Counted from the first letter of the stretch, positions 21,252 to 43,472 are shown. The stretch: 51,122 nt of DNA from an uncultured Candidatus Saccharibacteria bacterium (GCA_964349525.1 CAYGGI010000001.1:1-51122); one strand, 5' to 3'. A program made the numbers and translations. Notes: generated from the sequence alone by a model not told the origin.

Positions 21252-22699
21252 AATCTCTAACCACTATTTTCAAGACGACAATTTTTCGTTACGCGATGGC
21301 TGGAGGCACCGCGTCTCTCGTGGATGTCCTCTTATTCAATCTTCTCGTGTATAAGAGCAGTATTCATTATATCGCAGCCATAGTCGTCTCGAGCACCATT
21401 TCGTTTTTTCTCCGTTTCTTTCTGCAAAAGCGCGCATTCGGAGCTTCGTCAAGGACGGATACTCGTACCCAGTTCGTGTTGTACACAGCCCTTTTTGCAA
21501 TCAGTGTTGGTTTGACCGCCGCGCTCATGTATGTATTTGTTGATCTCGTCCATATCCAGAAGTCTATTGCTCAAATCATTTCCATTCTCCTCGTCGCCAT
21601 TTTCTGCTTTTTTACGTATCGACATGTCATTTTTCCCGCAGGCAGGGTGAAGAGTGGTCAAATCAAAAAACTTCTCATTATCACTCAAAAAGTGGATAGA
21701 GATGATCCCGTACTCGGATTCTTTCATAAGTGGGTTGAGGAAATGTCAAAAAAATTCGAGTCGATCATTGTTATCTGCCTCGAGAAAGGTCGGTCTGAGT
21801 TACCGGAAAATGTCAAGGTCTTGTCGCTCGGAAAAGAGGAGAGGCAGTCCCGCCTCCAGTACATCATCCACTTCTACTGGTATATCTTGAGTGAAAAGAA
21901 AAATTATGACGCGGTCTTCGTCCATATGAATCAACAGTATGTCGTTCTCGGCGCATGCGTCTGGAAGGCTCTCCATAAGAGCATCTATATGTGGCGCAAC
22001 CATGTCGCGGGGAGCCTGACAACGAAGCTCGCGGTTCGGCTGTGCGACAAAGTCTTCTGCACATCTGAATTTTCGTATACAGCAAGATACAAGAAGGCTG
22101 TTATTATGCCTGTGGGTGTCAACACGAATTTATTTAAAAAGGAATTAGAAACGACGAAAATTCCGAAGTCCATACTCTTTTTAAGCAGAATGGCGCCTAT
22201 CAAGAAACCTGACATGGTGATTGAAGCTTTCTCGGAAATGAAAAGCCGGGGCGTAGATTTCAGAGCTTCTTTTTATGGCGATCCTTCTCCTCGCGATGTG
22301 GCGTATTATGATACCCTCAAGAAGAAAATTGTCGAGAATGGCCTTTCGGAATCGGTGGCATTACATGCAGGAATTTCGAACAGCGAGACTGTCAGTGTCT
22401 ACAATAGTCACGAGATTTTCGTGAACCTTACACCGAGCGGATCCTACGACAAAACCATCTTTGAAGCTATGGCCTGCGAAACCCTTATCCTCGCTTCCAA
22501 CCGCAGCCTCTACGGTCTCGTGCACGAAGACTTTATTTTCAAAGAAGGAGACATCGCTGATCTCACGGGGAAACTCGAGAAACTTTTAACATTGAGTGTG
22601 GAGGAACGACTCGAGAGAGGCAAGGAACTTCGTGCGACGGTGGTGGAAAGCCATTCGCTCGAAAAGCTCATAGAAAAATTCTCAAAACACATCATATAA
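21248..22699 (+). CDS. Fusion: GtrA-like 4-TM domain + GT4 glycosyltransferase
   Basis: N-terminus FRYAMAGGTASLVDVLLFNLLVY...FFTYRHVIF is GtrA-like. C-terminus GSYDKTIFEAMACETLILASN is GT4. ORF trimmed to ATG 21248 (ATGA overlap). Confidence 0.75.
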   Translation: MKSLTTIFKTTIFRYAMAGGTASLVDVLLFNLLVYKSSIHYIAAIVVSSTISFFLRFFLQKRAFGASSRTDTRTQFVLYTALFAISVGLTAALMYVFVDLVHIQKSIAQIISILLVAIFCFFTYRHVIFPAGRVKSGQIKKLLIITQKVDRDDPVLGFFHKWVEEMSKKFESIIVICLEKGRSELPENVKVLSLGKEERQSRLQYIIHFYWYILSEKKNYDAVFVHMNQQYVVLGACVWKALHKSIYMWRNHVAGSLTTKLAVRLCDKVFCTSEFSYTARYKKAVIMPVGVNTNLFKKELETTKIPKSILFLSRMAPIKKPDMVIEAFSEMKSRGVDFRASFYGDPSPRDVAYYDTLKKKIVENGLSESVALHAGISNSETVSVYNSHEIFVNLTPSGSYDKTIFEAMACETLILASNRSLYGLVHEDFIFKEGDIADLTGKLEKLLTLSVEERLERGKELRATVVESHSLEKLIEKFSKHII

Positions 22700-22701
22700 T
22701 T

Positions 22702-24510
22702 ATGAAACTCATATACCTGACTGCAAAAAGATACCCGGGCACCACGGCAGACCATCATTATGTGGAAAATTTGGCACGAGCCTTCGGCAGGGAACTGGGA
22801 GGGAAATTCACCTTCGTCGTCTCCGAAGCAGAAGAAGGCGCGCTTTCCGGTATTCCTCTCGTGCAGGTTGTGTCCCCGACCTTCCTCAAGCGGACACTCT
22901 TCTTTTTTTTCTGGATTCCATGGCACTGGTGTACGACTGTTAAAAAAGATGAGAATACCGTATTTTTTTCGAATGATCAGAACCTTCTTGCGCTTCTCAT
23001 CTTCTGGAAAAAACTTCTTTCGCTTTCATACAGGGTCGCGCCCGACTGGCACATGCTTTCACATACATGGAAAGACCGTTTCATCGCGCGCACTTCAGAC
23101 TGTTCCATCTCTACCTCGAGAAAGCTCGAGCGGGCGGTGCGCGAGCTTGCGCCCCTCGCGTCCATCCATACCGTATACGGGGCGGTCGACGGTTCGCCTT
23201 TCGAAAAGGAGATTGATAGGAAAACTCTTCGGGAGAAATTGAGTTTGCCTGCAGACAGGTTTCTCATAAGCTATGTTGGACTTTTCAAGACGATGAAGAT
23301 GGAAAAGGGTATTTCCACCATGATACGTGCATTATCGGAATTACCTTCAGACTGCGCAATGGTTTTTGTCGGAGGAAAGCCTGATGAAATAGGACAGTAT
23401 GCGGAAGAAGCTCGATTGCAAAATGTTTTTGATAGATGTATTTTTTTGCCCATACAAAGTTTTGAAAATGTTGTGAGATATGAAAGGGCGATGGATATCC
23501 TCGTCATCCCGTATCCTGATAAACCACACTTTCGTTCTTTCGGTTTCCCCATGAAAATCTATGAATACATGGCGAGCCGTACGCCCATTATCTACACGAA
23601 ACTTGAACTTCTCGAAGAGGTTGTCTCGGACTGCGCGAAAGGTGTTACGCCAGATTCTCCCTCCGAGCTCGCTCAAGCAATTTCTTTTCTCCGATCCCAT
23701 CCAGAGGAAGCCCGGGACATGGCGCTCAAAGCTTTCGAGAAGGCGAAACACTTGACGTGGGAGGCGAAAGCGCACCTCATTGTGAAGAAATTTGCTATAC
23801 TACCCATCGTGCTCCATATACCTCATAACGCTCTCGCGTACATCCTGTTTCAAAGAACAGAATTTTCTATATACGCGACGCGACGGTGGCTCCTACGCTT
23901 AGTTATGAACAGGCGCATTCCTATTTACAATGCGGCGGTAAGACTCGAAGCGTTCCTTTTTCCATCGAGGACCAAGCGGCTTTTTTCCGCAGATATGGAA
24001 AGGGAATATGATATTATAAAAGAGCATCTCCCTTCCAATCTCCATAATATTCTCGATATCGGCTGTGGCGTGGCCGGCATAGACATCATGATCCACGCGC
24101 ACAACAAGAATGCCAATTTTCACTTGCTCGATAAGACCGAAGTGAATTCAAAAGTCTACTACGGACTAGAAAAAGAGGCCGCCTACTACAATTCCCTCGG
24201 CATCGCAAAAGAGATGCTTGTGGCAAATGGTGTCGAATCTTCTCATGTCTTCCTGCAGGAAGTGACCGGCGCCCCCCTTTTTCCCGGGAAGAAATTTGAT
24301 CTGATCATTTCTCTCATCTCTTGGGGATTTCATTATCCGATCTCTACCTACCTCGACTATGCCTTAGACGCGCTCCTCCCGGGAGGAAGGCTCATCATCG
24401 ATGTTCGCAAGGATACCGACGGAGAAGCGCTTCTTGAAGAAAAATTTGGCCCGCTCCGCATCATATATGAAGCGCAGAAGTATCGCCGTCTTCTGGTTAT
24501 AAAAAAATAG
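22702..24510 (+). CDS. Fusion: GT4 glycosyltransferase + class I SAM-dependent methyltransferase
   Basis: GT4 FGFPMKIYEYMASRTPIIYT, then SAM motif I ILDIGCGVAGIDIM and LLPGGRLIIDV in the last 200 aa or so. Confidence 0.75.
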   Translation: MKLIYLTAKRYPGTTADHHYVENLARAFGRELGGKFTFVVSEAEEGALSGIPLVQVVSPTFLKRTLFFFFWIPWHWCTTVKKDENTVFFSNDQNLLALLIFWKKLLSLSYRVAPDWHMLSHTWKDRFIARTSDCSISTSRKLERAVRELAPLASIHTVYGAVDGSPFEKEIDRKTLREKLSLPADRFLISYVGLFKTMKMEKGISTMIRALSELPSDCAMVFVGGKPDEIGQYAEEARLQNVFDRCIFLPIQSFENVVRYERAMDILVIPYPDKPHFRSFGFPMKIYEYMASRTPIIYTKLELLEEVVSDCAKGVTPDSPSELAQAISFLRSHPEEARDMALKAFEKAKHLTWEAKAHLIVKKFAILPIVLHIPHNALAYILFQRTEFSIYATRRWLLRLVMNRRIPIYNAAVRLEAFLFPSRTKRLFSADMEREYDIIKEHLPSNLHNILDIGCGVAGIDIMIHAHNKNANFHLLDKTEVNSKVYYGLEKEAAYYNSLGIAKEMLVANGVESSHVFLQEVTGAPLFPGKKFDLIISLISWGFHYPISTYLDYALDALLPGGRLIIDVRKDTDGEALLEEKFGPLRIIYEAQKYRRLLVIKK

Positions 24511-24513
24511 ACT

Positions 24514-25656
24514 ATGAATAAAAGACTCTTCCTCATCTTTCATGGCAGATTCCCGAGCGAGAAGGCCGCCTCGCTCTTTGCGGCGAAAAGCGCGGAAGTT
24601 TTCGGATCTCAAGGATTGAAAACAACTCTCATTGTGCCGAGAAGGAGGGGTGCGCTTGCGGATGACCCGTATGTGTATTATGGAATAGAGCACTCGTTTG
24701 ATATTGTTTATATCAAGACCGTCGGGATTTTCGGCATAAGAATACTGGAGCCGTTGGCGTTCTGTCTCAGCTACTTCTTCTTCTCTCTCGGGACATTCTT
24801 TTACATTAAAAAAAATAGCAGTGTTGATGATATTATATATTCGAATGAGATTTTTCCTCTGGTTCTGGTCTCATATGCGCGTCCAAACTGTTTCTATGAA
24901 ATGCATGATTTTCCAGAAAGCAAAATCGCTATTTTTGGTTGGTGTTTAAAAAAGATGAAGTGGATTCTCATACATAATAAGTGGAAACTCATCGAAGTAA
25001 AAAAGATATTTCCGGAAATCTCTCTTACTCGCTTTCTTTACGAACCAAATGCTGTCGACATGACTGCTTTTAACCTTTCACTTTCTAAAGAAGAAGCTCG
25101 CGAGAAGTTGTCATTGCCAGTGACAAAGAAAATTGCCGTCTACACAGGCCACCTCTATGGATGGAAAGGGGTGCACACTCTCGCTGAATCGGCAGCACTT
25201 CTTTCTTCCGATTTTCTGGTTATTTTTGTCGGGGGAACAGTGGAAGATGTCGCGAAATTTCGAGAAAAATACGCCACTACCCCTCATATCTCCATAGTCG
25301 GTCATGTTAATCATGCAGAAATTCCTCTATGGCAGAAGGCTGCTGATGTTCTCGTCCTTCCCAACACTGCCAAGGAAAAGATTTCCGCTTTCTATACGTC
25401 TCCCATGAAGCTCTTCGAGTATATGGCGAGCGGTGTACCGATCGTGGCTACGGACATTCCCTCGATCCGGGAGATTGTGAATGATGAGAGTGCTGTGTTC
25501 GTCGAGCCGGACAATGCGCAAGCGTTGGCAGACGGGATAGTAAAAGCTGTAACGACAGAGATTGGTCCGAAGATTTCGGAACAGGCTTTCCGGGATGTCG
25601 AGAGTCATACGTGGGAGAAAAGGGCGAAAAGAATTGTTGATTTTATTGAGAAATAA
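24514..25656 (+). CDS. Glycosyltransferase, GT4 family
   Basis: YTSPMKLFEYMASGVPIVATDIPSIREIV. It is a paralogue of the GT4 half of the preceding gene. Confidence 0.85.
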   Translation: MNKRLFLIFHGRFPSEKAASLFAAKSAEVFGSQGLKTTLIVPRRRGALADDPYVYYGIEHSFDIVYIKTVGIFGIRILEPLAFCLSYFFFSLGTFFYIKKNSSVDDIIYSNEIFPLVLVSYARPNCFYEMHDFPESKIAIFGWCLKKMKWILIHNKWKLIEVKKIFPEISLTRFLYEPNAVDMTAFNLSLSKEEAREKLSLPVTKKIAVYTGHLYGWKGVHTLAESAALLSSDFLVIFVGGTVEDVAKFREKYATTPHISIVGHVNHAEIPLWQKAADVLVLPNTAKEKISAFYTSPMKLFEYMASGVPIVATDIPSIREIVNDESAVFVEPDNAQALADGIVKAVTTEIGPKISEQAFRDVESHTWEKRAKRIVDFIEK

Positions 25657-25668
25657 TGAAAAAATACC

Positions 25669-27870
25669 ATGAAAGATTTTTTCAAGAAATATAGAATAGA
25701 CATTATTATCTTCGGAGTGGCGCTCTGCGCGAGAATTTTCCTTTTTGGGGTCAATTTCCATGCGTCGAATGGAGATCTGCTCGGCACCATTCATGGAGAC
25801 GACGGCTACTTCGAATTGAGCAGAGGCCTTCTCGCAGGCCATGGTTTCTCCTGGGATGTGCAGGAGCCTTTTCTGCCGAACACTCTCCGTACCCCGCTCT
25901 ATATTTATTTTATTTCCGCCAGTACATTCGTCTTCGGAAACTACGGATTCGCCATAGTCATCCAGATCATCCTCGGGGCACTCATTCCTGTCCTTGGTCG
26001 GCATATCGCTCTCGCGCTTATATCGAGAGAAAGGGTGGCTCTATGGGTGGGCATACTCCTTGCCTTCGAGCCTTATCTCGTCCTTTTTTCATCCATTTTC
26101 TACACCGAAACCTTTTTCATATTTCTCTTCTTGATTTTTATTCTTATTTTTCTCAAATATCTGAAGGAGGGAACTACACGCGCGCTCATTTGGAGCTCCT
26201 TCATCCTCGGCTTGGCGACTTTGACAAAAACGACTGTCCAATATCTGCCTCTCCTCCTCTTTTTCCTCATTCTCTGGAATTTCCGAAACATATTTTCACG
26301 AAAAAAGCTCCTTGGGCACGCTATACTTTTCATGGCTGTTTTCCTCGTCACCCTGTCTCCATGGCTGTATCGCAATTATCTGGAATTCGGAGTGGTCGGC
26401 ATGACGGCCCAGCCTGCATATAATCTGAATGTATATCTTGTCCCCTCGGTTCTTTCTCTTGAAAACGGCACGAGTTTCAACAGTGAAGTTGCGAAGTTCG
26501 TCACCACGGAAGAGTCGTCGGGTAACAAGATCACGCTGGCCAACAGTCCTGAATATACCAGAAGAGCATGGACTGTGCTCAAGGATCATCCGACAGGCCT
26601 CGTGAAATCCATGGCCATCACGATGGTTACTTTCTTTACCCACGATGGCATGCTCACGGTGCTCCAACATGCAGGATATGTGCCGGATGTGTACATGGGC
26701 AAGCCTGCCATCTCTCTTATATTCTCGTCGCCCCTCACATTTCTGCAGACTATGTTGAAATATATTCAAACCCCTCTTGTCCTAGTACTCGTCTTACGAA
26801 TAGTATGGATTGTTATTACTTTATTTTTCTTAATCGGGCTCGTGAGATTTATGAAAGTTAGGAAATGCGATGCCATTTCGCTCTTCATCCTTATCACGAT
26901 TCTCTATTTTGTAGCGACGAGTGCTATCGGAGGGCTCGGAGTCAACGCGAGATATCGCATGCCTCTTGATCCGATCCTCTTTACTTTTGCCCTGACTGGA
27001 TTTATATATATCCGCAATGTTATACTGCCTAAGCATAAAAAAACTATGACAAAAGACAGTACACAGCGACGAAAAATGGTAGAAGCCGCCATCGTGTGGA
27101 ATGGTCCATACCGCATTGACGAAAGCGGTCGACCCTTTCTGATTGAAAAGGAAGTTTTTGTTGCGAATGAGACCGAGCATGAAAGCGGGATAAATTGGCT
27201 CAAATCATTTCTTAAACGATGGCCAAAGCTCTACTACAGTGTCTGGCATGTTTTCTGTCCCGTTCTCATGCTTCGTCATGGACCGAGGATGATAAAGGAT
27301 TTTATTCCAAAAGATGCGATAGTAGTAGACCTTGGTTCAGGACCAGAGAGACTAGGAGACAGTTTTTTGAATGTGGATGTCTACCCGTTTCCTGAAGTGG
27401 ACATCGTGGCAGATGCCGAGCACCTGCCTTTCAAGGATAATTCTCTCGAAGCCCTCGTTTCCGAGTCTATGCTCGAGCATGTGCCGAATCCCCGGAAAGT
27501 CGCGGCAGAGATGGCGAGAGTTTTGAAGTCGGGAGGAGTCATCTATGTGAGCGCTCCCTTTATCCACCCATATCACGCTTCTCCAGATGATTTCAATCGA
27601 TGGACTATTTCTGGCTTGAAAGAGCTTTTTCCTGACCTTGAGATTATAAAAAGTGGCGTGCGTTCCGGTCCTTGGAGCGCCTTCCTCATGTTCCTAGCGT
27701 ATTGGCTCGGCGTAGTTTTCTCGCTCGGCTCGAGGAAAGTCGCCCCGTTTCTCGCCCATATTTTTATGTTAGTATTAGGCCCACTTAAATATTTAGATTT
27801 TTTCTTCACGGATATTCCTGGAGCCGAAGCCGTAGCAGCACATCTCTATATAATTGCAAAAAAGAAATAA
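25669..27870 (+). CDS. Fusion: GT-C fold polyprenyl-phosphate-sugar-dependent glycosyltransferase (PMT_2/ArnT-like) + class I SAM methyltransferase + C-terminal TM tail
   Basis: About 450 aa of polytopic membrane domain with first-loop acidic motif HGDDGYFELSRGLLAGHGFSW. Then VVDLGSGPERLG, LVSESMLEHVPNPRKV and LKSGGVIYVSAPF, then two further hydrophobic helices. Confidence 0.75.
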   Translation: MKDFFKKYRIDIIIFGVALCARIFLFGVNFHASNGDLLGTIHGDDGYFELSRGLLAGHGFSWDVQEPFLPNTLRTPLYIYFISASTFVFGNYGFAIVIQIILGALIPVLGRHIALALISRERVALWVGILLAFEPYLVLFSSIFYTETFFIFLFLIFILIFLKYLKEGTTRALIWSSFILGLATLTKTTVQYLPLLLFFLILWNFRNIFSRKKLLGHAILFMAVFLVTLSPWLYRNYLEFGVVGMTAQPAYNLNVYLVPSVLSLENGTSFNSEVAKFVTTEESSGNKITLANSPEYTRRAWTVLKDHPTGLVKSMAITMVTFFTHDGMLTVLQHAGYVPDVYMGKPAISLIFSSPLTFLQTMLKYIQTPLVLVLVLRIVWIVITLFFLIGLVRFMKVRKCDAISLFILITILYFVATSAIGGLGVNARYRMPLDPILFTFALTGFIYIRNVILPKHKKTMTKDSTQRRKMVEAAIVWNGPYRIDESGRPFLIEKEVFVANETEHESGINWLKSFLKRWPKLYYSVWHVFCPVLMLRHGPRMIKDFIPKDAIVVDLGSGPERLGDSFLNVDVYPFPEVDIVADAEHLPFKDNSLEALVSESMLEHVPNPRKVAAEMARVLKSGGVIYVSAPFIHPYHASPDDFNRWTISGLKELFPDLEIIKSGVRSGPWSAFLMFLAYWLGVVFSLGSRKVAPFLAHIFMLVLGPLKYLDFFFTDIPGAEAVAAHLYIIAKKK

Positions 27871-27871
27871 T

Positions 27872-28567
27872 ATGAAGAAACTTTCAATAATAATCCCCGC
27901 ATATAATGAAGAGAAGACAATCGGGAAAATAATAGAGCTTGTCAAAAGTGCGGATATAGGTAATCTCGAACGGGAGATTATCGTTGTTGACAATAACTCG
28001 AAGGATTCAACCTTCAAGGTTGTGAGCGCGATTCCTGATATAAAAGTTATCAAAGAATTGAGGCCGGGGAAAGGCGCCGCAGTGAAAAGAGGTTTTAAAG
28101 AAGCTACAGGAGATATTTTCATCATTCAAGATGCTGACCTCGAATACGACCCCAGGGACTATCAGGCGGTCATACAGCCGGTACTCGATGGCAGATGTGA
28201 ACTGACTCTCGGTATCCGCATAGAAGGCAGGCGCAAAGACGACCATCACAAGATGCTCTATTTTCTCGGACTCCTCGGCAACTACACCATTACTTGGGTC
28301 ACCAATATTCTGTACCTCAATAATGCCGGCGAGTACGAAGGATGCTACAAGGCTATTACAAAGAAGTTGGCGAACGAGATTGAGGTGAAAACTGACAACT
28401 TTGATTATGACAACGAGCTCGTCTGCAAGGCTCTCAAAAAGGGGTATAAGACCATCGATGTTCCTATACATTTTTACCCCAGGAATTATGAAGAAGGAAA
28501 AAAGATAAATTGGAAGCACGGGTTCCTGATTCTGTGGACGATCATAAAGTGCAGGTTTACGAAATAA
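27872..28567 (+). CDS. Glycosyltransferase, GT2 family (polyprenyl-phosphate sugar synthase-like)
   Basis: LSIIIPAYNEEKTIGKII, VVDNNSKDST and IIQDADLEYDP. ORF trimmed to ATG 27872. Confidence 0.85.
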   Translation: MKKLSIIIPAYNEEKTIGKIIELVKSADIGNLEREIIVVDNNSKDSTFKVVSAIPDIKVIKELRPGKGAAVKRGFKEATGDIFIIQDADLEYDPRDYQAVIQPVLDGRCELTLGIRIEGRRKDDHHKMLYFLGLLGNYTITWVTNILYLNNAGEYEGCYKAITKKLANEIEVKTDNFDYDNELVCKALKKGYKTIDVPIHFYPRNYEEGKKINWKHGFLILWTIIKCRFTK

Positions 28568-28570
28568 GCA

Positions 28571-28594
28571 GACCCCTCCGTTTCTGAAGGGGTC
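28571..28594. terminator. Hairpin between convergent operons (probable bidirectional terminator)
   Basis: GACCCCT (28571-28577) pairs with AGGGGTC (28588-28594). Moderately T-rich on both sides. Confidence 0.5.
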
Positions 28595-28612: not shown

Positions 28613-30145
28613 CTATGCGGTTGTCCTCAGAATATTTCCTGGGAATCCTTGTCCCATGGAATGTTCATAGCGCATGGCTGGCGCGCCTTTGTTGAAGGGA
28701 ATGTCGAGAATCCTTCGAACATCACTCTCCAAGCGATTGCGTTCGAGGACGATCTCCTCAGTAGAAAGATGGTCTGTGTAGACGAAAGCCTTGTAGCCTC
28801 CGTCCGGATCGCCTTTGTAGTAGTCAGCGACTTCCAGAAAATCGATCTCGATCTGATAGAGTCGTGTGCCGGTCGGTGGATAGGTGTATATCCAGACTCC
28901 TTTTATCTCCGGATGAGGAAGGGCGTGATCGTAGTACGGAGTGCCGGGGTACGCAGTGATGACAGAGACATCGAAGTCATCCGGTTTTGCCTCTAGGAGC
29001 CACTCTCTCGTAGCTTCGATCGTCGCAGGGGATTCACCTGGGTGCCCCATGGACATCAGAGCTTTCACTTTGAGACCATGGTGTTGGGCGATTTCCATGC
29101 AACGAGTGTTTTCGGCCCGTGTAGCTTTTTTATTGATCGCAGTCAGTATCTCTTCAGATCCTGACTCGAAGCCGACGAGGATCCAGCGGAAACCCGCTTT
29201 GTACATGGCTTCGGCCTGTTCGTCGGTGAGGAGTTGGGACTTGATGAATCCGCGGAGCTTCCATTCGACACCGAGATCCTGCTGAGTCTTCGCGATGAGA
29301 GCCATGAGTTCGAGCATCTTAGGATTAACATTGAGTTCGTCATCGTAGAGCATGAAGCCCTTGAAACCATAAGTCTTATAGAGATGGACCATTTCATCAA
29401 CGATATCTTGGGATGTTCGCATGCGGATCCTGCGAAATGTCGGAGATTCCCGACCTCCACAGAATCCGCAACCAAAAGGACAACCGAGCTGGGCGATGAG
29501 AGAGATGGCGATAACTCCGTCGATGGAGTAATGATAGCTTGAAACATCCACGAGGTGTCTAGCTGGCCACGGTGACAGGTTCAAACGTTCGTTTGTGAGG
29601 AAGAGCGCTGAACCTACGATATCCGCGTCGACAATCTTCGGCGATTTCTCTCCGAGAGCGATAAAGATCGCTTCTTCGCCGTCTCCTGCCACGATGACAT
29701 CGAATGTATCAGTGAGTTGGTTCATGGCTTTTGTAGCCCGACCTGTTCTTCCCACCAACTTCTCTTTTTTGTAGGCGGTATTGGTGAGTGTGGCATGTGG
29801 TCCGCCGAGGATGATTTGCACATCCGAACGGACACTGCGTAGCGCTTCCACAATCTTCACCGTTGCCGGCAATTGTGGAGTGGTGGCAGTGATTCCAAAA
29901 TGATGAACATCAGGAGTTTGCCTAACATAGTCTCGAACAATGTCGAGAAAGTTATTGAATCCTGACAGATCGAGGACATCGACGCGTACCCCAGCTTGTT
30001 CCACCATCGCGGCGACCTTGAGGATGCCGAGGTTCATAAACACTCGTTCGTCCATAAGGAAGATAGATGGAGGAGTGATGAAGGTCACGCGACCGGGAAG
30101 GTAAGAGTCTCTCGTGCGGAAAGACTCGGTGGTAATGATTTTCAT
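28613..30145 (-). CDS. B12-binding-domain radical SAM enzyme (class B-like)
   Basis: CxxxCxxC cluster motif GCPFGCGFCGG. It is preceded by a Rossmann-like N-terminal domain of about 180 aa (LGILKVAAMVEQAGVRVDVLDL...IILGGPHAT), typical of cobalamin-binding radical SAM proteins. Confidence 0.8.
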   Translation of the reverse strand: MKIITTESFRTRDSYLPGRVTFITPPSIFLMDERVFMNLGILKVAAMVEQAGVRVDVLDLSGFNNFLDIVRDYVRQTPDVHHFGITATTPQLPATVKIVEALRSVRSDVQIILGGPHATLTNTAYKKEKLVGRTGRATKAMNQLTDTFDVIVAGDGEEAIFIALGEKSPKIVDADIVGSALFLTNERLNLSPWPARHLVDVSSYHYSIDGVIAISLIAQLGCPFGCGFCGGRESPTFRRIRMRTSQDIVDEMVHLYKTYGFKGFMLYDDELNVNPKMLELMALIAKTQQDLGVEWKLRGFIKSQLLTDEQAEAMYKAGFRWILVGFESGSEEILTAINKKATRAENTRCMEIAQHHGLKVKALMSMGHPGESPATIEATREWLLEAKPDDFDVSVITAYPGTPYYDHALPHPEIKGVWIYTYPPTGTRLYQIEIDFLEVADYYKGDPDGGYKAFVYTDHLSTEEIVLERNRLESDVRRILDIPFNKGAPAMRYEHSMGQGFPGNILRTTA

Positions 30146-30217
30146 AAGAACTATATACTTCCATAAATATACCCATTATCAAGATGCGTGTCCATAGGTG
30201 ACTTTATTTTCACCTTT

Positions 30218-31000
30218 TTACCGTCTTAGACCGTGATACCCAATATCCTTCGGTGTATTCCATTCTCCTGATTCTGCCTTGAACTTTATAGAGACTGCCT
30301 TGCAGATAAGTATGGAGTTCCAGGCTGTTATATGCTTCTCTATGACCTCAAATCCCGCGCACTGAAGCATGGACTCAAGACAACTCGGGGTCATACCCCA
30401 GAACCAGTTCCCATAGCCTTCCTGCGGCTCATAGGGGCCTGTAATAGCCTTTTGGCTGCCTATACCCCTATTCCATATTTTACGCTGATTTTCGGGTAAA
30501 AAGGGGTAAAAAATGGCTGCATTTCGGAGTCCGTGCACCTCAGGGATCGATGCGGTATTGAGTATCAAAATTTCACCAGTAATAGCGCGAAGACGGGTGA
30601 GAAGGTGAATAGGGTCAGGAGTGTGGTAAAGGACTCCAGAACAGAGAACCACATCACATACACCTACCTTGTTTGTAGTATCGGTAAGGTTCACATCTCC
30701 TTGAACGAATTCTACTTTGGAATTCCTGCGTTTTTTTTCTTCTATAAATTTCTCGCTCGCCGGGTAAATGTCGAGTGCGACAATTCTCCGTGCTCCACTT
30801 TCTTCAGCCACAAATGAATTGAGACCATCCACCCCCCAAAGTGCGCCGATATCTGCAAAAGATTTCCCCTTTGAATATTTTTTTACCAGATCACTATTAC
30901 TGATCTCTGGGCGAGCTCCAAATACCTTTTTTAATTTGCGCCTCACTCGCTGTGTGAATGCATATCTTTTTGAAAGTCGTACTGAAAGTTTGTAAAACAT
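30218..31000 (-). CDS. Class I SAM-dependent methyltransferase
   Basis: FADIGALWGVDG, RIVALDIY and VVLCSGVLYHTPDPIHLL (motif I / post-I / motif II-III pattern). Confidence 0.7.
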   Translation of the reverse strand: MFYKLSVRLSKRYAFTQRVRRKLKKVFGARPEISNSDLVKKYSKGKSFADIGALWGVDGLNSFVAEESGARRIVALDIYPASEKFIEEKKRRNSKVEFVQGDVNLTDTTNKVGVCDVVLCSGVLYHTPDPIHLLTRLRAITGEILILNTASIPEVHGLRNAAIFYPFLPENQRKIWNRGIGSQKAITGPYEPQEGYGNWFWGMTPSCLESMLQCAGFEVIEKHITAWNSILICKAVSIKFKAESGEWNTPKDIGYHGLRR

Positions 31001-31012
31001 AATAAATATTAT

Positions 31013-31816
31013 TTAATGATAAAATGACTTACTTATTTTTAAATGATCGATCGGTAGTCCATCTTTCACGGCAAGATAGTTCGTAAGGGTGAATCTTTCC
31101 TGATCTGGATAATAGATGACTTTTTCTGTTGATAGAGGTTTGATTCTATATAGAGTATATCCATAACTTACAAAAAAATCTATAAAATCTTTCAAGAAAA
31201 CGCCTGCTTGGGCTGTGGCGCCAGAAAACTCAAACTGGATAAGGTCGATTGCTTTTTTTTGAAACATTCCACGAGCACCCTCGAGAACAAAAAATTCGTA
31301 TCCTTCGACATCTATTTTCATGAAATCAATATGAGTGATATTTTTTGAATCGGCATAATTGTCTATCGTGTCTACCTTCACTTTCTTGTTTTCCAGAAGT
31401 TCAGCCTCGCCATGGAGGTCGAGAAGGGAATTGAAAACGCTTTTGTTCTTGTGAAGGTGAAGTACGGCTTCACCAACAGTTTTTCCTAAAGCGCAGTTAT
31501 TAGCCCTTACTCCCTTCTTCGAAAGTTCACCAAACGCTCGCGAGTCGGGTTCAAAAGCATGGATAAGGACATCTTTTTTGATATGTAAAATCTCCTCCGC
31601 ATAGTCTCCAATATTTGCGCCCACATCGAACACGACTTTCGCACGAGGGATGATCTCTTTTAGGAGGCGATACTCGCCATTTGTTCTACGATCAAAATCG
31701 TTGTCTCCATAACAGAAATCAACATACCTGGAGCAGAATTTAAAGAGGTTTTTTGAATATCGTGGATGAGCTCGGTTCATGAAGAGACGAGTCGCCAGCA
31801 GTCCAAATAATTTCAT
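31013..31816 (-). CDS. FkbM-family methyltransferase
   Basis: [28 protein letters not shown] and [19 protein letters not shown]. The ORF was trimmed from 32281 to ATG 31816 because the extension is antisense to a motif-bearing gene. TGCTATGAT box 9 nt upstream. Confidence 0.8.
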
Positions 31817-31867
31817 ATGAGGCGTATCATAGCATATTTTATGGATATCAAGTATAATTTTCGAGTC

Positions 31868-32647
31868 ATGCAACCTTCCATAACTGATGTAAAGGACTTC
31901 TGGAATCGCCGTCCCTGCAACCTCCGCCATTCTCCCGAGCCTGTCGGCACACGGGCGTATTTTGATCAAGTAGAAAAAAGAAAGTACTTTGTCGAGTACC
32001 ACATTCCAGGCTTTGCAGATTTTCCTAGGTGGAAAGGGAAGAAGGTTCTCGAGATCGGTTGCGGTATCGGGACGGACTCCGTCAACTTCGCTCGTGCAGG
32101 CGCCGAGCTCACTGCTGTCGAACTTTCTGAGGAGAGTCTCAAGCTCTGCCGAGAGCGTTTCGAAGTTTATGGCTTGCGAGCCCGATTCTACATAAGCGAC
32201 GCGGAAACCCTTTCGCGAGTGGTGCCTATCGAGAAATACGACCTCGTATATTCCTTTGGCGTTATCCACCATTCGCCACATCCGGAAATGATTATTGCGG
32301 AGGCACAGAAATACATGGGTCCGGATTCCGAGCTACGCATCATGCTCTATGCAAAGTATTCTACAAAGAATTTCCTCATCTTGCTCGGCCTCATGCAGCC
32401 GGAAGCGCAGACAGGATGTCCTATCGCTTTTACCTACAGTAAAAAAGAAGTAAGGGATTTACTCAAGGACTTTAATGTTATTTCGATACAAAAAGAGCAT
32501 ATTTTTCCGTATAAGATAGGACCATATAAAAAATACGAGTACAAGAAAGCATTTCCGTGGAATATTTTGCCGAGCGCGGTTCTCCGATGGTTTGAAAAGA
32601 GATTCGGCTGGCATCTTTTGATCAGGGCGAAGCTTAAGAAAATGTAG
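31868..32647 (+). CDS. Class I SAM-dependent methyltransferase
   Basis: FWNRRPCN N-terminus, [19 protein letters not shown] and [16 protein letters not shown]. Start set at ATG 31868, with TATAAT at 31853-31858. Confidence 0.8.
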
Positions 32648-32651
32648 TTCT

Positions 32652-33557
32652 TCAACACTGCACCATCTTCGCATACTTGTTCTCAAAAAACTCCTTCTTA
32701 TCCGCGTAGTAATTCCAATCCATTTGATTTTTTGTCATTACAATATGCGGGATATTCCCATACCATGAAGCGAACGCGCCGAAGCTCGAATCAGATCCGA
32801 TGATCATGTCTGTACTTGAGAGGAGGAAGAGGTCGGTGACCGAGTCCTCTTTTGAGATATATGTATTTAAATTCCTGAAAATGCTTCCTTCTATCGGTCC
32901 ATCGGAAGTAATGAGAAAGAGTGTCGCATTTTTATTGATGGAGTTCCTCTGGATGAATTCATCGATAATCTCTTTTACCCGTGTTTGATCTATAAAATAT
33001 GCCCCACCTTTGAATTCTCTGTAGTCATGCTGACGAATATGGACGCCGATTATCTTCTCATGCGTTTGCCGAAGCGACCCAATGATATCGGTCACTTTCT
33101 TCTCGATCGCTGAGTTCGGTGTAAAAGCGGACACGAGTTCTCTTCTGCATCTTTTGAGTCCAGCAGGATTCCTGAACAGCCAACCTACAAAGTAGAGAGT
33201 ATCTTTGGTAGGAAGTGTGGTGGGTAGATAGACTACTTGATTTCCTTCGTTCTCTGAAGATACTACGCTGTTTCTAACGAAGAATTGTACGCTATGCGCG
33301 TACGCGAGATAGGCATTTCGCCAGAAGCGATTGCGAGAGCTCCCGCGCCTGCCTATTGAATCCCGGAACCAATAGGAGAAAAATCGAGTAAGAAAGTTTT
33401 CATGTTCGATAAATTTGAAATAGGGATGATATTCAAAAAAAGAAGGGTTCTGCACCTCTGCGCCAGTTTCGAGTCCATAGGCGTAGATGCTTATATAATT
33501 CCACAATTGGTTTGCGAGTTCACCTCCGCCATGCTTCAAAATAATTATTTTTTTCAT
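32652..33557 (-). CDS. GT11-like (fucosyltransferase-superfamily) glycosyltransferase, putative
   Basis: GGGELANQLWNY parallels GT11 GGLGNQLFQY. IIGVHIRQHDY parallels the GT11 HVRRGDY motif. IGSDSSFGAFASWYG parallels the C-terminal S-x-FSWW motif. Confidence 0.5.
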   Translation of the reverse strand: MKKIIILKHGGGELANQLWNYISIYAYGLETGAEVQNPSFFEYHPYFKFIEHENFLTRFFSYWFRDSIGRRGSSRNRFWRNAYLAYAHSVQFFVRNSVVSSENEGNQVVYLPTTLPTKDTLYFVGWLFRNPAGLKRCRRELVSAFTPNSAIEKKVTDIIGSLRQTHEKIIGVHIRQHDYREFKGGAYFIDQTRVKEIIDEFIQRNSINKNATLFLITSDGPIEGSIFRNLNTYISKEDSVTDLFLLSSTDMIIGSDSSFGAFASWYGNIPHIVMTKNQMDWNYYADKKEFFENKYAKMVQC

Positions 33558-34876
33558 TTCTTTCTACCAGGAGAAATGTAGGTCACATGTTTATTAAAAT
33601 CCTTCTGCGTGAACATACCCCACGAGTCTATGATAGTTTTCTTTGTTTTCGTATTCTTGAGGATTTCAGGAATGGTGATGAAGAGCTTGTCGTTATTAGA
33701 TACAAAAATCACATCACTTTTCTTCAGTGTGTCTTTTAAGCTTTTAGCATAACTAACTTTACCGCCAAAAACCCTCTTTGCATCATGGTGGCCCATCGGC
33801 TCATAAAGTAGGATGGGGTGTTTAAGGGAAACAAGCTTCTCGGTGATGAAGCGGGCCTGGGATTCTTCGGAGAGAGTGGTGTTTGGCTTGTAGGAGATGC
33901 CGAGGATTCCTATCACATCCTTCGGCTTGGCGGCAGATTTTCTGATAAGAGATAAAGTTTTTTTCCAGATGCCATCATTGAGATTGTGGGTGGCGAGAGC
34001 AATAGGAGTCTCTACCCCCAGCTTTTTGGCCATTGCGGCGAAGGCAAAGTTGTCGCGGGGGAAGCAGGTGCCGCCATAGCCGAGACCTGCGCGCAGATAC
34101 GCCTTCCCGATTCTCCGGTCCTTGCCCAGAGTGGTGGTGATCTCGTCAACATCGGCATACGGAAGTTTCGAACAGAGTTCACCGAGAATGTTGGCAAAAG
34201 TGATCTTCATGGTCACATAAGAGTTGAGGCTGATCTTGGCAAGCTCCGCGCTTTCTATGTTCATCTGTTCAATAGGCTTCTGGCCTTTGTAAATATTCTC
34301 GTAGATCTCTCTCACCGCCTCGCGAGCTGGTCCCTCCGGAGCTCCGAGGAATACGAAATCGGGATTTTCGAGATTGTTGAGAATATCCCCGATGGCGATG
34401 AGGCTCGGGCTGTAGGCGTAGCCGAAATGCTCGCCATGCTTCTTCCCTGAATGTTTTTCAAAAGCGGGAATGATGAGCTCATGGGAATTTCCCGGAAGAA
34501 CCGTGCTCACAAGGACGAAGACATGGTAGCCGTCTTTTTTATTGAGATGATGTCCGATCGCTTGCGCGGCAGAAAGAATATAGTCGACAGAAAATAAACC
34601 ATCTTTCCTGCTCGGAGTAGGGAGGATGATGAAGGTAAGATCTGTCTCTGCTATGAGCCTACCAAGCTCTGTAGTAGCGCTTATGCGCTCGCTGTTTCTC
34701 TTTATGAGCTCCGCAAGCCCAGGCTCATTTACAGGCGCCAAGCCCTCATTTAAAAGGCTTACATTCGCCTCATTGATATCGTAGCCCAGAACACTGTAGC
34801 CCTTGCTGGCATAAAAAGCGGCATAGCAAGCTCCTAGTTTTCCCAGACCAATGACTGAAAGTTTCTTTTTTGGCAT
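33554..34876 (-). CDS. Nucleotide-sugar 6-dehydrogenase (UDP-glucose/GDP-mannose dehydrogenase family)
   Basis: LSVIGLGKLGACYAAFYASKGYSV (NAD fold) and catalytic-Cys segment GYGGTCFPRDN. ORF trimmed to ATG 34876. Confidence 0.85.
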   Translation of the reverse strand: MPKKKLSVIGLGKLGACYAAFYASKGYSVLGYDINEANVSLLNEGLAPVNEPGLAELIKRNSERISATTELGRLIAETDLTFIILPTPSRKDGLFSVDYILSAAQAIGHHLNKKDGYHVFVLVSTVLPGNSHELIIPAFEKHSGKKHGEHFGYAYSPSLIAIGDILNNLENPDFVFLGAPEGPAREAVREIYENIYKGQKPIEQMNIESAELAKISLNSYVTMKITFANILGELCSKLPYADVDEITTTLGKDRRIGKAYLRAGLGYGGTCFPRDNFAFAAMAKKLGVETPIALATHNLNDGIWKKTLSLIRKSAAKPKDVIGILGISYKPNTTLSEESQARFITEKLVSLKHPILLYEPMGHHDAKRVFGGKVSYAKSLKDTLKKSDVIFVSNNDKLFITIPEILKNTKTKKTIIDSWGMFTQKDFNKHVTYISPGRKK

Positions 34877-34889
34877 ACCTGCTATCTTT

Positions 34890-35675
34890 TCATATATTCC
34901 TGAAATGGTAAAGCCCTGTTCCGAAGCCTTTCGTGGCGTCGTAGGCAGGATAAATATCCTTGCCATAAATATATTTTTCTTCTGTAAGATTGAGTGGTTT
35001 GAAAATGTTTAGAATGTAGTCGCGGGTAAAAGCTCGGTGTGCGTTGAAGTAGACTTTATTTTCCGCATCTACGGGCACAGAAATATATAATGAGCCGCCC
35101 TTTGCGAGGACTCTTGCAAGTTCTTTGGCCGCTTTTTCTGTGCCGAACTGATCGAGAGGATCGCCGTATCTGCCGAGGCCAATGTGTTCGATGACACAGA
35201 TGGAGCTCAAGGAAGAGATCGACTGGTCGGCAAAAGGTAGAGCTGTAATATCGCCTTCGACAAAGGAAAGTCCGGGCAGGGAAAGGGCGAGTGGACGGAT
35301 GTCGACCATCGTCGTAGGGGTAAATTGGGAAATGATACCGACCATGAGCGCCTGTGAACCGATATCATGATGCTTTTCCGGCTTGGCTTCGAAAATTTTC
35401 TTTGCGCACCATGTACCTTGGAGAAAGTAAACAGGGTCGAGTTTGTGACTGCCTGTTTTGTCATAGATACGAGGGAAGAGGTTGGAGGTCTTTAGTTTGT
35501 GGGTCGGGTTTCTAGAGAGATTCTTAAAGAGTCGATAATCACGAAAAAAGGAGTGCAGGTATTTCGCTTTATTAAAAAAACCATACTCACATACGAAAGT
35601 TCTAGCTGTTATGACCATGTATTTCAAAATAGGAATACTTTTTAGCTTTTCTTTCATATTGTGATAAACTAACAT
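34890..35675 (-). CDS. SAM-dependent methyltransferase-like protein (DUF268/Methyltransf_11-like)
   Basis: [17 protein letters not shown] and [13 protein letters not shown]. Alternative start at 35657. Confidence 0.6.
35662..35670 (+). promoter_or_regulatory. Extended -10 box TGATAAACT, 10 nt upstream of ATG 35680, located inside the divergent gene
   Basis: Motif match. The only 4-nt gap between divergent start codons forces the promoter into the neighbouring coding sequence. Confidence 0.35.
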
Positions 35676-35679
35676 AAAT

Positions 35680-36744
35680 ATGGCGAAATCTCAAACAACA
35701 AAATACGCTTTAGTGACTGGCTCTGCTGGCCTCATCGGTTCAGAGTCGGCACGTTTTTTTGCTTCTCAAGGATATGAGATTGTCGGTATTGATAACGATA
35801 TGAGACAGTATTTCTTTGGTTCTGATGCGAGTACCACATGGAACAATGATCTTTTGAAGAAAGATCTGCAAGGACACTATTCTCATTATAAAGTCGATAT
35901 TAGAGACAATGAGAAAATAGAGGAGATATTTAAGACACATACATTCGACATCATCATTCACACTGCGGCTCAGCCAAGCCACGATTGGGCCGCGAAGGAA
36001 CCCCTAACAGACTTTTCTGTAAATGCTCTCGGAACTCTCATCATGCTTGAAAATTTCAGAAAGTATTCACCTGAAGCAACTTTTATTTTCACTTCTACGA
36101 ATAAAGTCTATGGAGATAGGCCAAATAGCCTGCCACTTGTCGAACTAGAAAAAAGATATGAAATTTATGATGGTCATGAATATGTCAAAGGTATCCCAGA
36201 GACGATGAGTATTGACGATACCAAGCATAGTGTCTTCGGAGCTTCAAAAGTCGCCGCAGATATCATGGTCCAGGAATATGGAAAGTATTTTAATTTGAAT
36301 ACCGGCGTTTTTCGTGGAGGTTGCCTGACAGGCCCTGCGCATAGTGGTACCGAACTCCATGGCTTCCTTGCATACCTTGTGAAGTGTATTGCAACAGGTA
36401 AGAAGTACACGATTTTTGGCTATAAGGGCAAGCAAGTTAGGGATAACATCCACTCCTATGATCTCGTCAATATGTTCTGGCACTACCATGCGGATCCTGG
36501 CCGAGGTGAAGTCTATAATGCCGGCGGAGGAAGACAATCAAACATCTCTATCCTCGAAGCGATCGATAAGATTGAAAAAATCCTCGGTAAAAAAGCTCTC
36601 TACGAATACAAGGATGATAACCGCATTGGTGATCATATATGGTATATTTCAGACACATCAAAGTTTTCTTCACGGTATCCTGAGTGGAAGTATACCTATG
36701 ATATAGACGCCATTCTCGAAGAGATGTGCGCACATTATAGATAA
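35680..36744 (+). CDS. Extended SDR NAD-dependent epimerase/dehydratase (CDP-paratose-2-epimerase-like) with Phe in place of the catalytic Tyr
   Basis: [14 protein letters not shown] and TSTNKVYGD. The expected YxxxK reads [22 protein letters not shown] is also present. Confidence 0.8.
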
Positions 36745-36749
36745 ATCCC

Positions 36750-37823
36750 ATGAACTATAAAACCATACTTATCACAGGAGGTTGTGGATTTGTCGGATCA
36801 AACCTTGCTGAGAAAATTAAAAAAACATATCCAGATGCGCGGGTGATTGCTATGGATAACTTATACAGGAAAGGATCTGAACTTAATGCTCAACGTTTAG
36901 AAAAGATGGGCGTGGAATTTAAAAAAGGGGATGTTAGAAAAAGAGATGATTTCACGTTTGACATAAAAATTGATCTCATCATCGAGTGTGCAGCTGAGCC
37001 CTCAGTCATGGCTGGTTTGAGTGAATCACCTCTGTATGCTGTTGATACAAACCTGAATGGCGCTATTAACTGCCTCGAATTGGCACGGACAAATGATTCC
37101 TCGCTCATCTTTCTTTCGACAAGCCGCGTCTATCCTGTACAAGAGCTCAAGGAAATCGTACTCACAGAATCTAGAAGTCGATTTGAGATAGACAGTCACC
37201 AGACACTGAAAGGAGTATCTGATTTTGGAATCTCAGAAGAATTTTCTCTAGGAAATGTGCGTACATTATACGGCGCGACGAAATTGGCCTCGGAATTTAT
37301 CATCAAAGAATATGCAGAAAATTATCACATACCCTCAGTCATTGACCGTTGCGGGGTGATCACGGGACCATGGCAGTTTGGTAAAGTAGATCAAGGAGTT
37401 TTTTCTTTGTGGGTTGCTCGGCATATATATCGAAGCAAGAAACTCTCGTACATCGGTTTTGGAGGCACAGGTAAGCAGGTCAGGGATTTTATCCATATTG
37501 ATGATCTATTCAATGCAGTCAAATTTCAAATGGAAAATCTTTCAAACTGGAGCGGAGAAGTATTTAATATCGGTGGTGGAAGAGAACAGAGCCTCTCGCT
37601 TTGTGAGTTAACTGAACTATGTCAGAGTCTTTCCGGAGTTAAGCTAGAAATTGATCAGGTAAAAAAAGATAGAGTCGGAGATATACCTCTCTACATCAGC
37701 GATTGTAGAAAATTTCAGAAGATGAGTAATTGGAAGCCCCGCATTGGTCCAAAAGAAGCCATCAAGAGTCTCTTCGATTGGATGAATGAATACAAGGAAT
37801 TGCTGAAACCTATTTTAGAGTAA
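36750..37823 (+). CDS. Extended SDR NAD-dependent epimerase/dehydratase (paralogue, canonical YxxxK)
   Basis: ILITGGCGFVGSNL, LYGATK and GTGKQVRDFIHIDD. Confidence 0.85.
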   Translation: MNYKTILITGGCGFVGSNLAEKIKKTYPDARVIAMDNLYRKGSELNAQRLEKMGVEFKKGDVRKRDDFTFDIKIDLIIECAAEPSVMAGLSESPLYAVDTNLNGAINCLELARTNDSSLIFLSTSRVYPVQELKEIVLTESRSRFEIDSHQTLKGVSDFGISEEFSLGNVRTLYGATKLASEFIIKEYAENYHIPSVIDRCGVITGPWQFGKVDQGVFSLWVARHIYRSKKLSYIGFGGTGKQVRDFIHIDDLFNAVKFQMENLSNWSGEVFNIGGGREQSLSLCELTELCQSLSGVKLEIDQVKKDRVGDIPLYISDCRKFQKMSNWKPRIGPKEAIKSLFDWMNEYKELLKPILE

Positions 37824-40521: not shown

Positions 40522-40536
40522 ATAATTATTTTTTCT

Positions 40537-41415: not shown

Positions 41416-41416
41416 T

Positions 41417-42719: not shown

Positions 42720-42725
42720 ACTAAG

Positions 42726-42751
42726 AAGCGTAGCATTTTCATGCTACGCTT
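42726..42751 (-). terminator. Strong hairpin between the Nudix and cytidylyltransferase genes (terminator or processing/attenuation site)
   Basis: 11-bp perfect stem AAGCGTAGCAT / ATGCTACGCTT with a 4-nt loop. There is no long U-run on the minus strand, so function is uncertain. Confidence 0.35.
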
Positions 42752-42772
42752 TCAATGAGGAGAATACTTCGG

Positions 42773-43333: not shown

Positions 43334-43472
43334 AATGATACCTTTCTCAGGTAAACATACATTATTTGTTAGTATTGTCAATCTCAAGTAAATAGTCTAT
43401 AGTGAACCCAGATTGAAAACCGTTTTTTGATCTTTGATTTGAACTTCTGAGAACCCTCTAACTAAGGAATCT

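Follow-up and report, generated by a model that had tools for sequence, protein, structure and literature searches.

The window analyzed here, a stretch of 51,122 nucleotides from an uncultured Candidatus Saccharibacteria bacterium (GCA_964349525.1 CAYGGI010000001.1:1-51122), encodes a 510-residue radical S-adenosylmethionine (SAM) protein within a large glycan cluster. As far as its sequence can tell, the best explanation is that this protein belongs to an uncharacterized, strongly constrained orthogroup of radical SAM enzymes with class B architecture. Our best reading of its role is that the family tailors a lipid-carrier-linked or nucleotide-linked sugar in surface-glycan pathways. The conserved unit around the gene consists of the radical SAM enzyme, a predicted lipid-carrier sugar synthase, and a GT-C glycosyltransferase.

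A strongly constrained orthogroup

The gene that encodes the protein is the following.

28613..30145, minus strand: radical SAM gene, 510 residues, intact open reading frame (ORF), class B architecture

An earlier note on this DNA had described the protein as a B12-type N-terminal domain joined to the cluster motif CPFGCGFC, and had held that a lack of B12-binding similarity in profile searches would speak against this description. The similarity is there: Pfam places the B12-binding domain PF02310 at residues 38-140 (57.2 bits against a cut-off of 32.1, E 2e-15) and the Radical_SAM domain PF04055 at residues 219-383 (88.6 bits, E 7e-25). The motif CPFGCGFC occupies residues 222-229 and is a CX3CX2C [4Fe-4S] motif. 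Both defining features of class B, an N-terminal Rossmann-type domain of the cobalamin-binding type and a CX3CX2C core, are present throughout the family, since all 30 aligned members match both domains and all pass the B12-binding cut-off. In the AlphaFold2 (AF2) model of the protein (predicted local distance difference test score, 88.9), strands and helices alternate over residues 19-174.

The mean column identity in the 30-sequence alignment is 69%. Its only invariant cysteines are C222, C226, and C229, with C349 nearly invariant. The N-terminal domain matches the core in invariance (D32, R34, G40, T86, T88, P90, G114, G115, H117, D155, G156, and E157), which suggests that it binds a ligand. 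A C-terminal extension of the family's own carries the invariant motifs DYYKGDPxGGY and YEHSMGQ.

Homologs of about 500 residues number in the thousands, are 63-82% identical, and are nearly all unnamed; a literature search found no paper on this radical SAM family. Among species-representative genomes, the carriers belong to at least eight phyla (Patescibacteria, Elusimicrobiota, Nitrospirota, Acidobacteriota, Omnitrophota, Latescibacterota, Planctomycetota, and Methylomirabilota/Rokubacteria) and encode proteins 58-67% identical to that of the window. One of the Acidobacteriota carriers, Sulfidibacter corallicola M133 (locus L071), is in culture. A tree of 81 sequences tracks the phyla, with Elusimicrobiota, Nitrospirota, and Omnitrophota each lying on one side of a branch. 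Recent horizontal spread is therefore unsupported as the source of an identity of about 60% between phyla, and we attribute this identity to constraint. Such values fit a single conserved small-molecule substrate. We rejected the idea that the family is common in Patescibacteria, the phylum of the window: none of 200 other genomes sampled from this phylum carries it, and a sample of 121 Elusimicrobiota genomes yielded 3 carriers.

Some members show variant architectures. In one homolog of 702 residues (P0160), the radical SAM part (residues 5-430) is fused to an Exostosin GT47 domain (residues 554-664). Many members are interrupted by inteins, often with a LAGLIDADG endonuclease; among the top 20 representative clusters, about half are affected. 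The inteins sit inside the cluster motif, between CX3 and CX2C (GCPYx / intein...HN / CxFC), with the second [4Fe-4S] cysteine as the +1 extein residue. Carriers are P0121, P0123, P0124, P0127, P0134, P0150, P0162, P0212, and P0238; large ORFs in L013, L016, L020, L023, and L079 likewise bear inteins. The gene of the window has none.

The conserved neighborhood

To characterize the neighborhoods, ORFs were called in 80 loci and clustered by BLAST; 72 of these loci hold the radical SAM gene. Every locus examined has a sugar or surface-glycan context. GT2 glycosyltransferases are found near the family in 39 of the 72 loci (within 3 kb in 26), GT1/GT4 enzymes in 33, and short-chain dehydrogenases/reductases (SDRs) of the epimerase/dehydratase type in 25, often directly upstream on the same strand. 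The strict cluster of upstream SDRs comprises 19 loci, with a median gap of 71 nucleotides. AsnB-type amidotransferases occur in 12 of the 72, and other neighbors include Wzy_C, Wzy_C-TPR, an ATP-binding cassette exporter, Bac_transf, and FkbM. Outside Patescibacteria, it is the SDRs, AsnB-type amidotransferases, Wzy_C, and Bac_transf that accompany the family. Lipid-synthesis genes do not recur beside the family.

In Patescibacteria, the layout is stereotyped: a lone radical SAM gene is convergent with a GT2 gene of about 235 residues, followed by an MT11 methyltransferase gene and a PMT_2 GT-C gene. The corresponding genes of the window are these.

27854..28567, plus strand: small GT2, 237 residues, convergent with the radical SAM gene (Glycos_transf_2, 94.6 bits)
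25669..27870, plus strand: PMT_2 GT-C with a C-terminal class I methyltransferase, a fusion of 733 residues (PMT_2, 41.2 bits against a cut-off of 26.1; Methyltransf_11, 49.5 bits)
24514..25656, plus strand: GT1, syntenic with the GT-C module in relatives
22702..24510, plus strand: GT1+MTS fusion, syntenic with the GT-C module in relatives
21116..22699, plus strand: fusion of a GtrA domain (candidate flippase) and a GT1 (GtrA_DPMS_TM, 53.9 bits)

The small GT2 resembles polyprenyl-phosphate sugar synthases in NCBIfam, each match being below its cut-off (AglJ, 106.9 of 325 bits; PpgS, 48 of 370; ArnC type, 44.7 of 529), and can also be likened to GtrB. Its orthologs, 53-85% identical by tblastn, lie beside the radical SAM gene in L007, L089, L090, L064, and L077, and its strict BLAST cluster spans 15 loci, in all of which it is at most 3 kb from that gene. 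The GT-C part of the PMT_2 fusion is polytopic. By tblastn, PMT_2/MT11, GT1, GT1+MTS, and GtrA+GT1 come next in the same order in relatives. The synteny of GT2, GT-C, and GtrA holds in L007, L089, L090, and L077, with GT-C and MT11 as separate adjacent genes in L007 and L090 and a 60% identical GtrA+GT1 ortholog in L090. In L035, L064, and L075, too, a GT-C homolog adjoins the radical SAM gene. The module of small GT2, MT11, and PMT_2 is found next to that gene in L007, L089, L090, L064, and L077.

Other associations are narrower. In L007, L089, and L090, the region upstream of the radical SAM gene retains the pair formed by the DUF268 gene and the gene for a 301-residue protein (50-75% identity; 50-72% for the 301-residue protein). 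The two SDRs of the window have orthologs, 71% and 52% identical, in L081, where a distance of 1.7 kb separates them from the radical SAM gene. In one relative's locus (P0092; JGI 3300071325), the radical SAM gene is flanked by an SMR protein (Multi_Drug_Res, ArnE/F-like), a PMT_2 GT-C, a small GT2, and a NodU/CmcH-type carbamoyltransferase, a combination that is both Arn-like and Moe-like.

The adjacent methyltransferases

The earlier note had placed the radical SAM gene at the head of a block of three different methyltransferases. The class I, FkbM, and divergent class I methyltransferases are indeed adjacent, and all three have Pfam matches. The gene does not lead them: it is the 3'-most gene of a minus-strand run, and the third methyltransferase is on the plus strand.

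28571..28594, minus strand: terminator-like hairpin of 9 pairs (6 G-C) followed by a T-rich tail, 19 nucleotides past the radical SAM stop
30166..30194, minus strand: promoter-like site TGGACA-17-TATATT with 10 of 12 matches, in the 72-nucleotide gap upstream of the radical SAM gene
30218..31000, minus strand: class I methyltransferase, 260 residues, a weak match (Methyltransf_11, 31.6 bits)
31013..31819, minus strand: FkbM-family methyltransferase, with the start placed at 31819; the mechanical ORF extends to 32281
31868..32647, plus strand: class I methyltransferase (Methyltransf_25, 59.7 bits), with an alternative ATG at 31817

The FkbM gene most likely starts at the ATG at 31819, giving 268 residues, because the N-terminal 154 codons of the long ORF overlap the well-supported methyltransferase gene on the plus strand. 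Its domain (Methyltransf_21, 72.6 bits; TIGR01444, 74.6 bits) covers residues 219-376 of the long ORF.

Could the radical SAM enzyme and these three methyltransferases form one unit making a multiply C- and O-methylated sugar? The minus-strand genes do adjoin, with gaps of 72 nucleotides between the radical SAM and 260-residue methyltransferase genes and of 12 nucleotides between the latter and FkbM, and the cluster has six methyltransferase domains. Against such a unit, tblastn found no homolog of the 260-residue and plus-strand methyltransferases in 12 related Patescibacteria loci, where the GT2 and the GT-C persist, and an FkbM homolog is found in only some of them (with a 55% identical ortholog in L007). 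The association with the three methyltransferases is therefore not conserved. In the closest relatives, a divergently oriented CmcI-type methyltransferase takes the site instead, and no cluster of class I or FkbM methyltransferases figures among the frequent neighbors across the 72 loci. The radical SAM gene also has a promoter-like and a terminator-like site of its own; the promoter-like evidence is weak, a match to consensus only, and such sites are fewer in the scanned region than in shuffles. We thus consider a single four-gene unit very improbable. The idea of a methylated sugar, which the earlier note had drawn from this adjacency, keeps the support of the glycan context and of a methyltransferase-rich cluster and loses that of the three adjacent genes.

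The surrounding glycan cluster

The assembly from which the window comes, as contig 1, totals 685 kb in 61 contigs, and its marker genes put its completeness at 98.7%. One large glycan cluster spans positions 17-50 kb. Its glycosyltransferases comprise GT4/GT1/GT2 enzymes, the GtrA+GT1, GT1+methyltransferase, and PMT_2 GT-C+methyltransferase fusions, and a GT11. It also encodes a split transketolase with an SDR, a cytidylyltransferase, and a NUDIX protein. Three of its six methyltransferase domains had not been mentioned in the earlier note (DUF268, the MT11 fused to PMT_2, and the MTS fused to GT1). The remaining features that concern us are as follows.

32652..33557, minus strand: 301-residue protein without a family match, conserved beside the DUF268 gene in relatives
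33554..34966, minus strand: nucleotide-sugar 6-dehydrogenase of the UDP-glucose dehydrogenase type (TIGR03026, 294 bits, above cut-off)
34890..35675, minus strand: DUF268/class I methyltransferase (Pfam), syntenic in relatives
35680..37823, plus strand: two NAD-dependent epimerase/dehydratase (SDR) genes (family matches)
43473..45296, plus strand: second B12-binding/radical SAM protein, 607 residues, of a different family
47368..49122, minus strand: AsnB-type glutamine amidotransferase (TIGR01536, 479 bits)

The N terminus of the 301-residue protein, HGGGELANQLWNY, recalls the GT11 fucosyltransferase motif. As called mechanically, the dehydrogenase ORF shares 77 nucleotides with the DUF268 gene; its true start is probably the ATG near 34876, because the Pfam domains begin at residue 35. 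The second radical SAM protein is 26% identical to the first, in the core only, and has homologs of 40-65% identity in Patescibacteria, Elusimicrobia, Nitrospira, and Brocadia. Beside its gene (39760-43387) lie the NUDIX protein, a small cytidylyl/adenylyltransferase resembling RfaE domain II, the SDR, and the split transketolase, a neighborhood that suggests a separate activated-sugar pathway. Directly upstream of the glycan cluster, positions 15644-17371 (plus strand) encode a TraG/TrwB/VirD4-like type IV coupling-protein ATPase of 575 residues.

What reaction does the enzyme catalyze?

Most characterized class B enzymes are methylases (PMC9204698; PMC12931638). The tailoring reaction may well be C-methylation via methylcobalamin, to which our analysis gives a little less than an even chance; the label "C-methylase" is a prior from the enzyme class and not a result. 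The earlier note had pointed to GenK-type sugar C-methylases. The class B architecture supports this comparison, but orthology to a characterized methylase does not: among the NCBIfam models, the protein scores 110.8 of the 600 bits required for PhpK, 76.9 of 360 for QCMT, and 65.9 of 650 for HpnR. The nonmethylating families BchE, which the note had named as an alternative (101.1 of 481.35), and HpnJ (104.5 of 577.6) fare no better, nor do AprD4 (NF033070, 64.8 of 500) and rSAM_ocin_1 (52.2 of 282). On scores, we rejected orthology to BchE, HpnJ, AprD4, or HemN-like enzymes, and the neighborhood of the gene holds no chlorophyll or hopanoid genes. Of the named families, HpnJ ranks second for the window protein; similarity networks in the literature put it together with MoeK5 and Fom3, enzymes that are sugar- or phospho-linked (PMC9204698; PMC12931638).

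Several points weigh against our reading, and those on cofactor supply given in the next section should be counted with them. No curated NCBIfam cut-off is reached by the window protein or by its sister subfamilies, which we retrieved from a search of 1.84 billion representative proteins and which are also unnamed. In a single-sequence search of solved structures, QCMT/MgmA (9CCB) and AprD4 (6FD2) are about equal; with the family profile, the best solved relative is AprD4 (81.8 bits, versus 64.7 for QCMT), aligned almost position for position over the core region 170-393. Foldseek with the AF2 model ranks TsrM (9e-21), AprD4 (1e-19), and MgmA (4e-18) first, then MiaB, TokK, OxsB, and CysS, and so fails to separate cobalamin-binding from cobalamin-free relatives. 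AprD4, a sugar diol dehydratase, binds no cobalamin despite its Rossmann-like domain (PMC12931638; PMC5461906); hence, architecture alone does not show methyl transfer. Two positions past the third cluster cysteine, in a mapping of low confidence, the family has an invariant Gly where radical methylases have a hydrophobic residue, e.g., W215 of TokK (PMC12931638). In a weak alignment, also of low confidence, T88 corresponds to R69 of TsrM and W76 of TokK (PMC12931638). Finally, the SDR directly upstream in about a quarter of the loci also fits a dehydratase-reductase pair of the AprD4/AprD3 type.

These observations bear on an alternative in which the same sugar is tailored with no methyl transfer, the N-terminal domain being free of cobalamin or using it as an electron sink. 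The chemistry could then be a diol dehydration like that of AprD4/AprD3 followed by SDR reduction, a ring contraction like those of HpnJ or OxsB, an epimerization, or an oxidation. In its favor are the place of AprD4 as the best solved relative by profile and near the top by fold, the invariant Gly, the upstream SDRs, and a genome with no visible route to cobalamin; moreover, the nonmethylases HpnJ and BchE score as high as any methylase family. On the other hand, the AprD4 family model, far below its cut-off, aligns the core alone (residues 189-415), and the cluster motif is the canonical CX3CX2C here versus CX3CX3C in the aligned AprD4 chain. The N-terminal domain is extremely conserved, and NCBIfam alignments to cobalamin-linked families do cover it (BchE, 42-416; HpnR, 30-405; BzaD, 20-381; ApyD, 35-406). 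A profile of this domain against all PDB sequences returned noise only (Rab GTPases at E > 0.02; 4Q37 at E 0.14). Because PF02310 is passed in 30 of 30 members, the alignments with cobalamin families span the domain, and the motif is CX3CX2C, the evidence leans toward a real cobalamin domain. We therefore take tailoring with no methyl transfer seriously while judging it somewhat doubtful.

Must the substrate be a sugar at all? Isoprenoid lipids are methylated by class B relatives of MoeK5 (Gmm; PMC11214058); TIGR04072, a B12/radical SAM model for lipid biosynthesis, matches with 66 bits, much as HpnR does; and the conserved partner GT2 would act on polyprenyl phosphate. The enzyme could thus methylate or cyclize the polyprenyl carrier or another lipid, in the manner of Gmm, GrsA/B, or HpnR/HpnP, or else modify a protein or peptide that accepts the glycan. 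Yet no lipid-synthesis genes recur beside the family, the fusion to a GT47 glycosyltransferase exists, genes for precursor peptides or for ribosomally synthesized and posttranslationally modified peptides are absent, and every score is far under the family cut-offs. Taken together, this makes a nonsugar substrate improbable, and we retain a carrier-linked or nucleotide-linked sugar as the likely target.

Cofactor supply in the 685-kb genome

If the enzyme uses methylcobalamin, where does the cofactor come from? The earlier note had observed that the window contains no cobalamin genes, and the same is true of the whole assembly: FecCD, Peripla_BP_2, CbiQ/EcfT, CobS, CobA, and PduO-type proteins gave no match, nor did the cobalamin riboswitch RF00174, in searches that all gave matches in control genomes. 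The genome search proposed in that note has thus turned up no uptake or salvage gene, no riboswitch, and no other B12 enzyme, and the only B12-binding domains are those of the two radical SAM proteins of the glycan cluster. A class II (B12-dependent) ribonucleotide reductase (RNR) might have been a sign of cobalamin use; we rejected it, as the RNR is the class I enzyme NrdA (contig C7:4370-6178, plus strand; NF005101, 1211 bits against a cut-off of 988). Free-living carriers of the family have many other B12 proteins. Family searches leave room for uptake through transporters of other kinds.

A second gap in the genome changes how these absences should be read. By profile, neither the bacterial SAM synthetase MetK (TIGR01034) nor the archaeal type (PF01941) was detected, and the MetK signature motif does not occur in a six-frame translation of the genome. 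Methyltransferases are many, and besides the two radical SAM genes of the glycan cluster there is a third, for an NrdG-like activase, on contig 47. Import of SAM is therefore probable, unless the synthetase gene sits in an assembly gap. If cofactor import is normal for this bacterium, the missing cobalamin genes say little, and they lose weight both as an argument against cobalamin use and as support for a cobalamin-free enzyme.

Two side observations concern the same genes. The activase-like gene (C47:1509-1925, minus strand; CNFRCPYCHN) resembles the activase of an anaerobic RNR; because a class I RNR alpha subunit is encoded as well, both aerobic and anaerobic syntheses of deoxynucleoside triphosphates seem to be retained. 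The sole "tetrapyrrole methylase" match in the window is a TP_methylase-fold protein of 226 residues (13093-13773, plus strand), which by its size is probably an RsmI-type rRNA methyltransferase and not a corrin enzyme; it might lead a hunt for cobalamin genes astray.

A possible pathway and its implications

The architecture, family conservation, and conserved neighborhood are observed; from them we infer which substrate is used, that a methyl group is transferred, that cobalamin takes part, and in what order the steps run, as follows. The small GT2 would load a sugar from a nucleotide sugar onto polyprenyl phosphate. This sugar may derive from a uronic acid, and a uronamide would fit, because the cluster encodes a UDP-glucose dehydrogenase, two SDRs, and an AsnB amidotransferase. 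At the cytoplasmic face, the radical SAM enzyme would then use a 5'-deoxyadenosyl radical to abstract a hydrogen from an unactivated carbon of the polyprenyl-phosphate sugar or of its nucleotide precursor; methylcobalamin bound in the N-terminal domain would most likely then methylate this carbon, a C-methylation with a close precedent in the action of MoeK5 on a uronic acid in the moenomycin pathway. O-methyl groups could be put on by the MT11 domain, which is anchored in the membrane, and by other methyltransferases, after which the GtrA-type protein would flip the carrier and the PMT_2 GT-C would pass the modified sugar to a surface polymer or protein.

A bolder version can be formulated, which we think unlikely though worth stating. 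The enzyme could act as a fourth, radical, component of a Gtr/Arn system, carrying out C-methylation, deoxygenation, or ring rearrangement on the polyprenyl-phosphate-linked sugar before flipping, a transformation that donors of this kind are not yet known to undergo. In the same version, the symbiont would run this step on cofactors taken from its host (SAM, perhaps cobalamin), or else the family would form a second lineage that has a B12-like domain but no cobalamin.

What would be the consequences of such an activity? What is known of class B radical SAM enzymes comes mainly from pathways to antibiotics, cofactors, lipids, and peptides. An orthogroup dedicated to cell-surface glycans, if confirmed, would extend radical chemistry to the sugars of the envelope. 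The orthogroup, with carriers ranging from Patescibacteria to Nitrospirota and Acidobacteriota, is linked to modules for lipid-carrier glycosylation. It would also imply that organisms with chemically uncharted surfaces display unusual sugars, whether C-methylated, deoxygenated, or rearranged. In the 685-kb genome, two of the three radical SAM genes are found in this one cluster, with neither a SAM synthetase nor a recognizable cobalamin route; surface decoration may therefore depend on host-derived cofactors. The cultured carrier S. corallicola M133 opens the question to experiment.

Comparison with known systems

The moenomycin pathway provides one point of comparison, by description only. 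In this pathway, the AsnB-like amidotransferase MoeF5 and the carbamoyltransferase MoeM5 work alongside MoeK5. The clusters described here likewise have an AsnB-type amidotransferase (in the window and in 12 other loci) and a UDP-sugar 6-dehydrogenase, and one relative's locus has a carbamoyltransferase. MoeK5 itself is a radical SAM enzyme with a B12 domain, thought to C-methylate a lipid-phosphate-linked uronic acid (PMC9204698). The difference lies in the setting, which here is a surface-glycan cluster with a GT-C transferase and not an antibiotic pathway.

Among solved enzymes, AprD4 (6FD2) is close by profile and by fold (TM 0.60/0.66). A sugar ring is its target, its N-terminal domain is of the Rossmann type, and the SDRs that often adjoin the family here bring to mind its reductase AprD3. 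It differs in the CX3CX3C motif read in the alignment, in being cobalamin free (PMC12931638), and in its substrate, an aminoglycoside pseudodisaccharide. The solved cobalamin-dependent enzymes QCMT/MgmA (9CCB), TsrM (6WTE), TokK (7KDX; Foldseek E about 7e-15), and OxsB (5UL3; 1e-14), as well as CysS, share the N-terminal Rossmann domain and the partial TIM barrel. They are 12-19% identical to the window protein, whose family has a conserved C-terminal extension of its own, and act on a peptide, tryptophan, a carbapenem, or a nucleotide. HpnJ, again a radical SAM enzyme with a B12 domain, works on a lipid-linked amino sugar made by a GT2 (HpnI), but its score is far under the cut-off and no hopanoid genes are present. 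The reaction of HpnJ, a ring contraction giving the hopanoid cyclitol ether, is itself only proposed (PMC9204698).

There is also a parallel in gene content with the GtrA/GtrB/GtrC, ArnC/ArnE-F/ArnT, and PpgS/Rv3779 systems, three-component systems of extracytoplasmic glycosylation, since a small GT2, a GtrA-domain protein, and a polytopic PMT_2 GT-C are found together here and are conserved together. Known systems of this kind transfer an unmodified or conventionally modified sugar, whereas the loci described here consistently include a radical SAM enzyme and a membrane-anchored methyltransferase as well. We hence class the locus as a lipid-carrier glycosylation module of the Gtr/Arn type plus an uncharacterized class B-type radical SAM enzyme.

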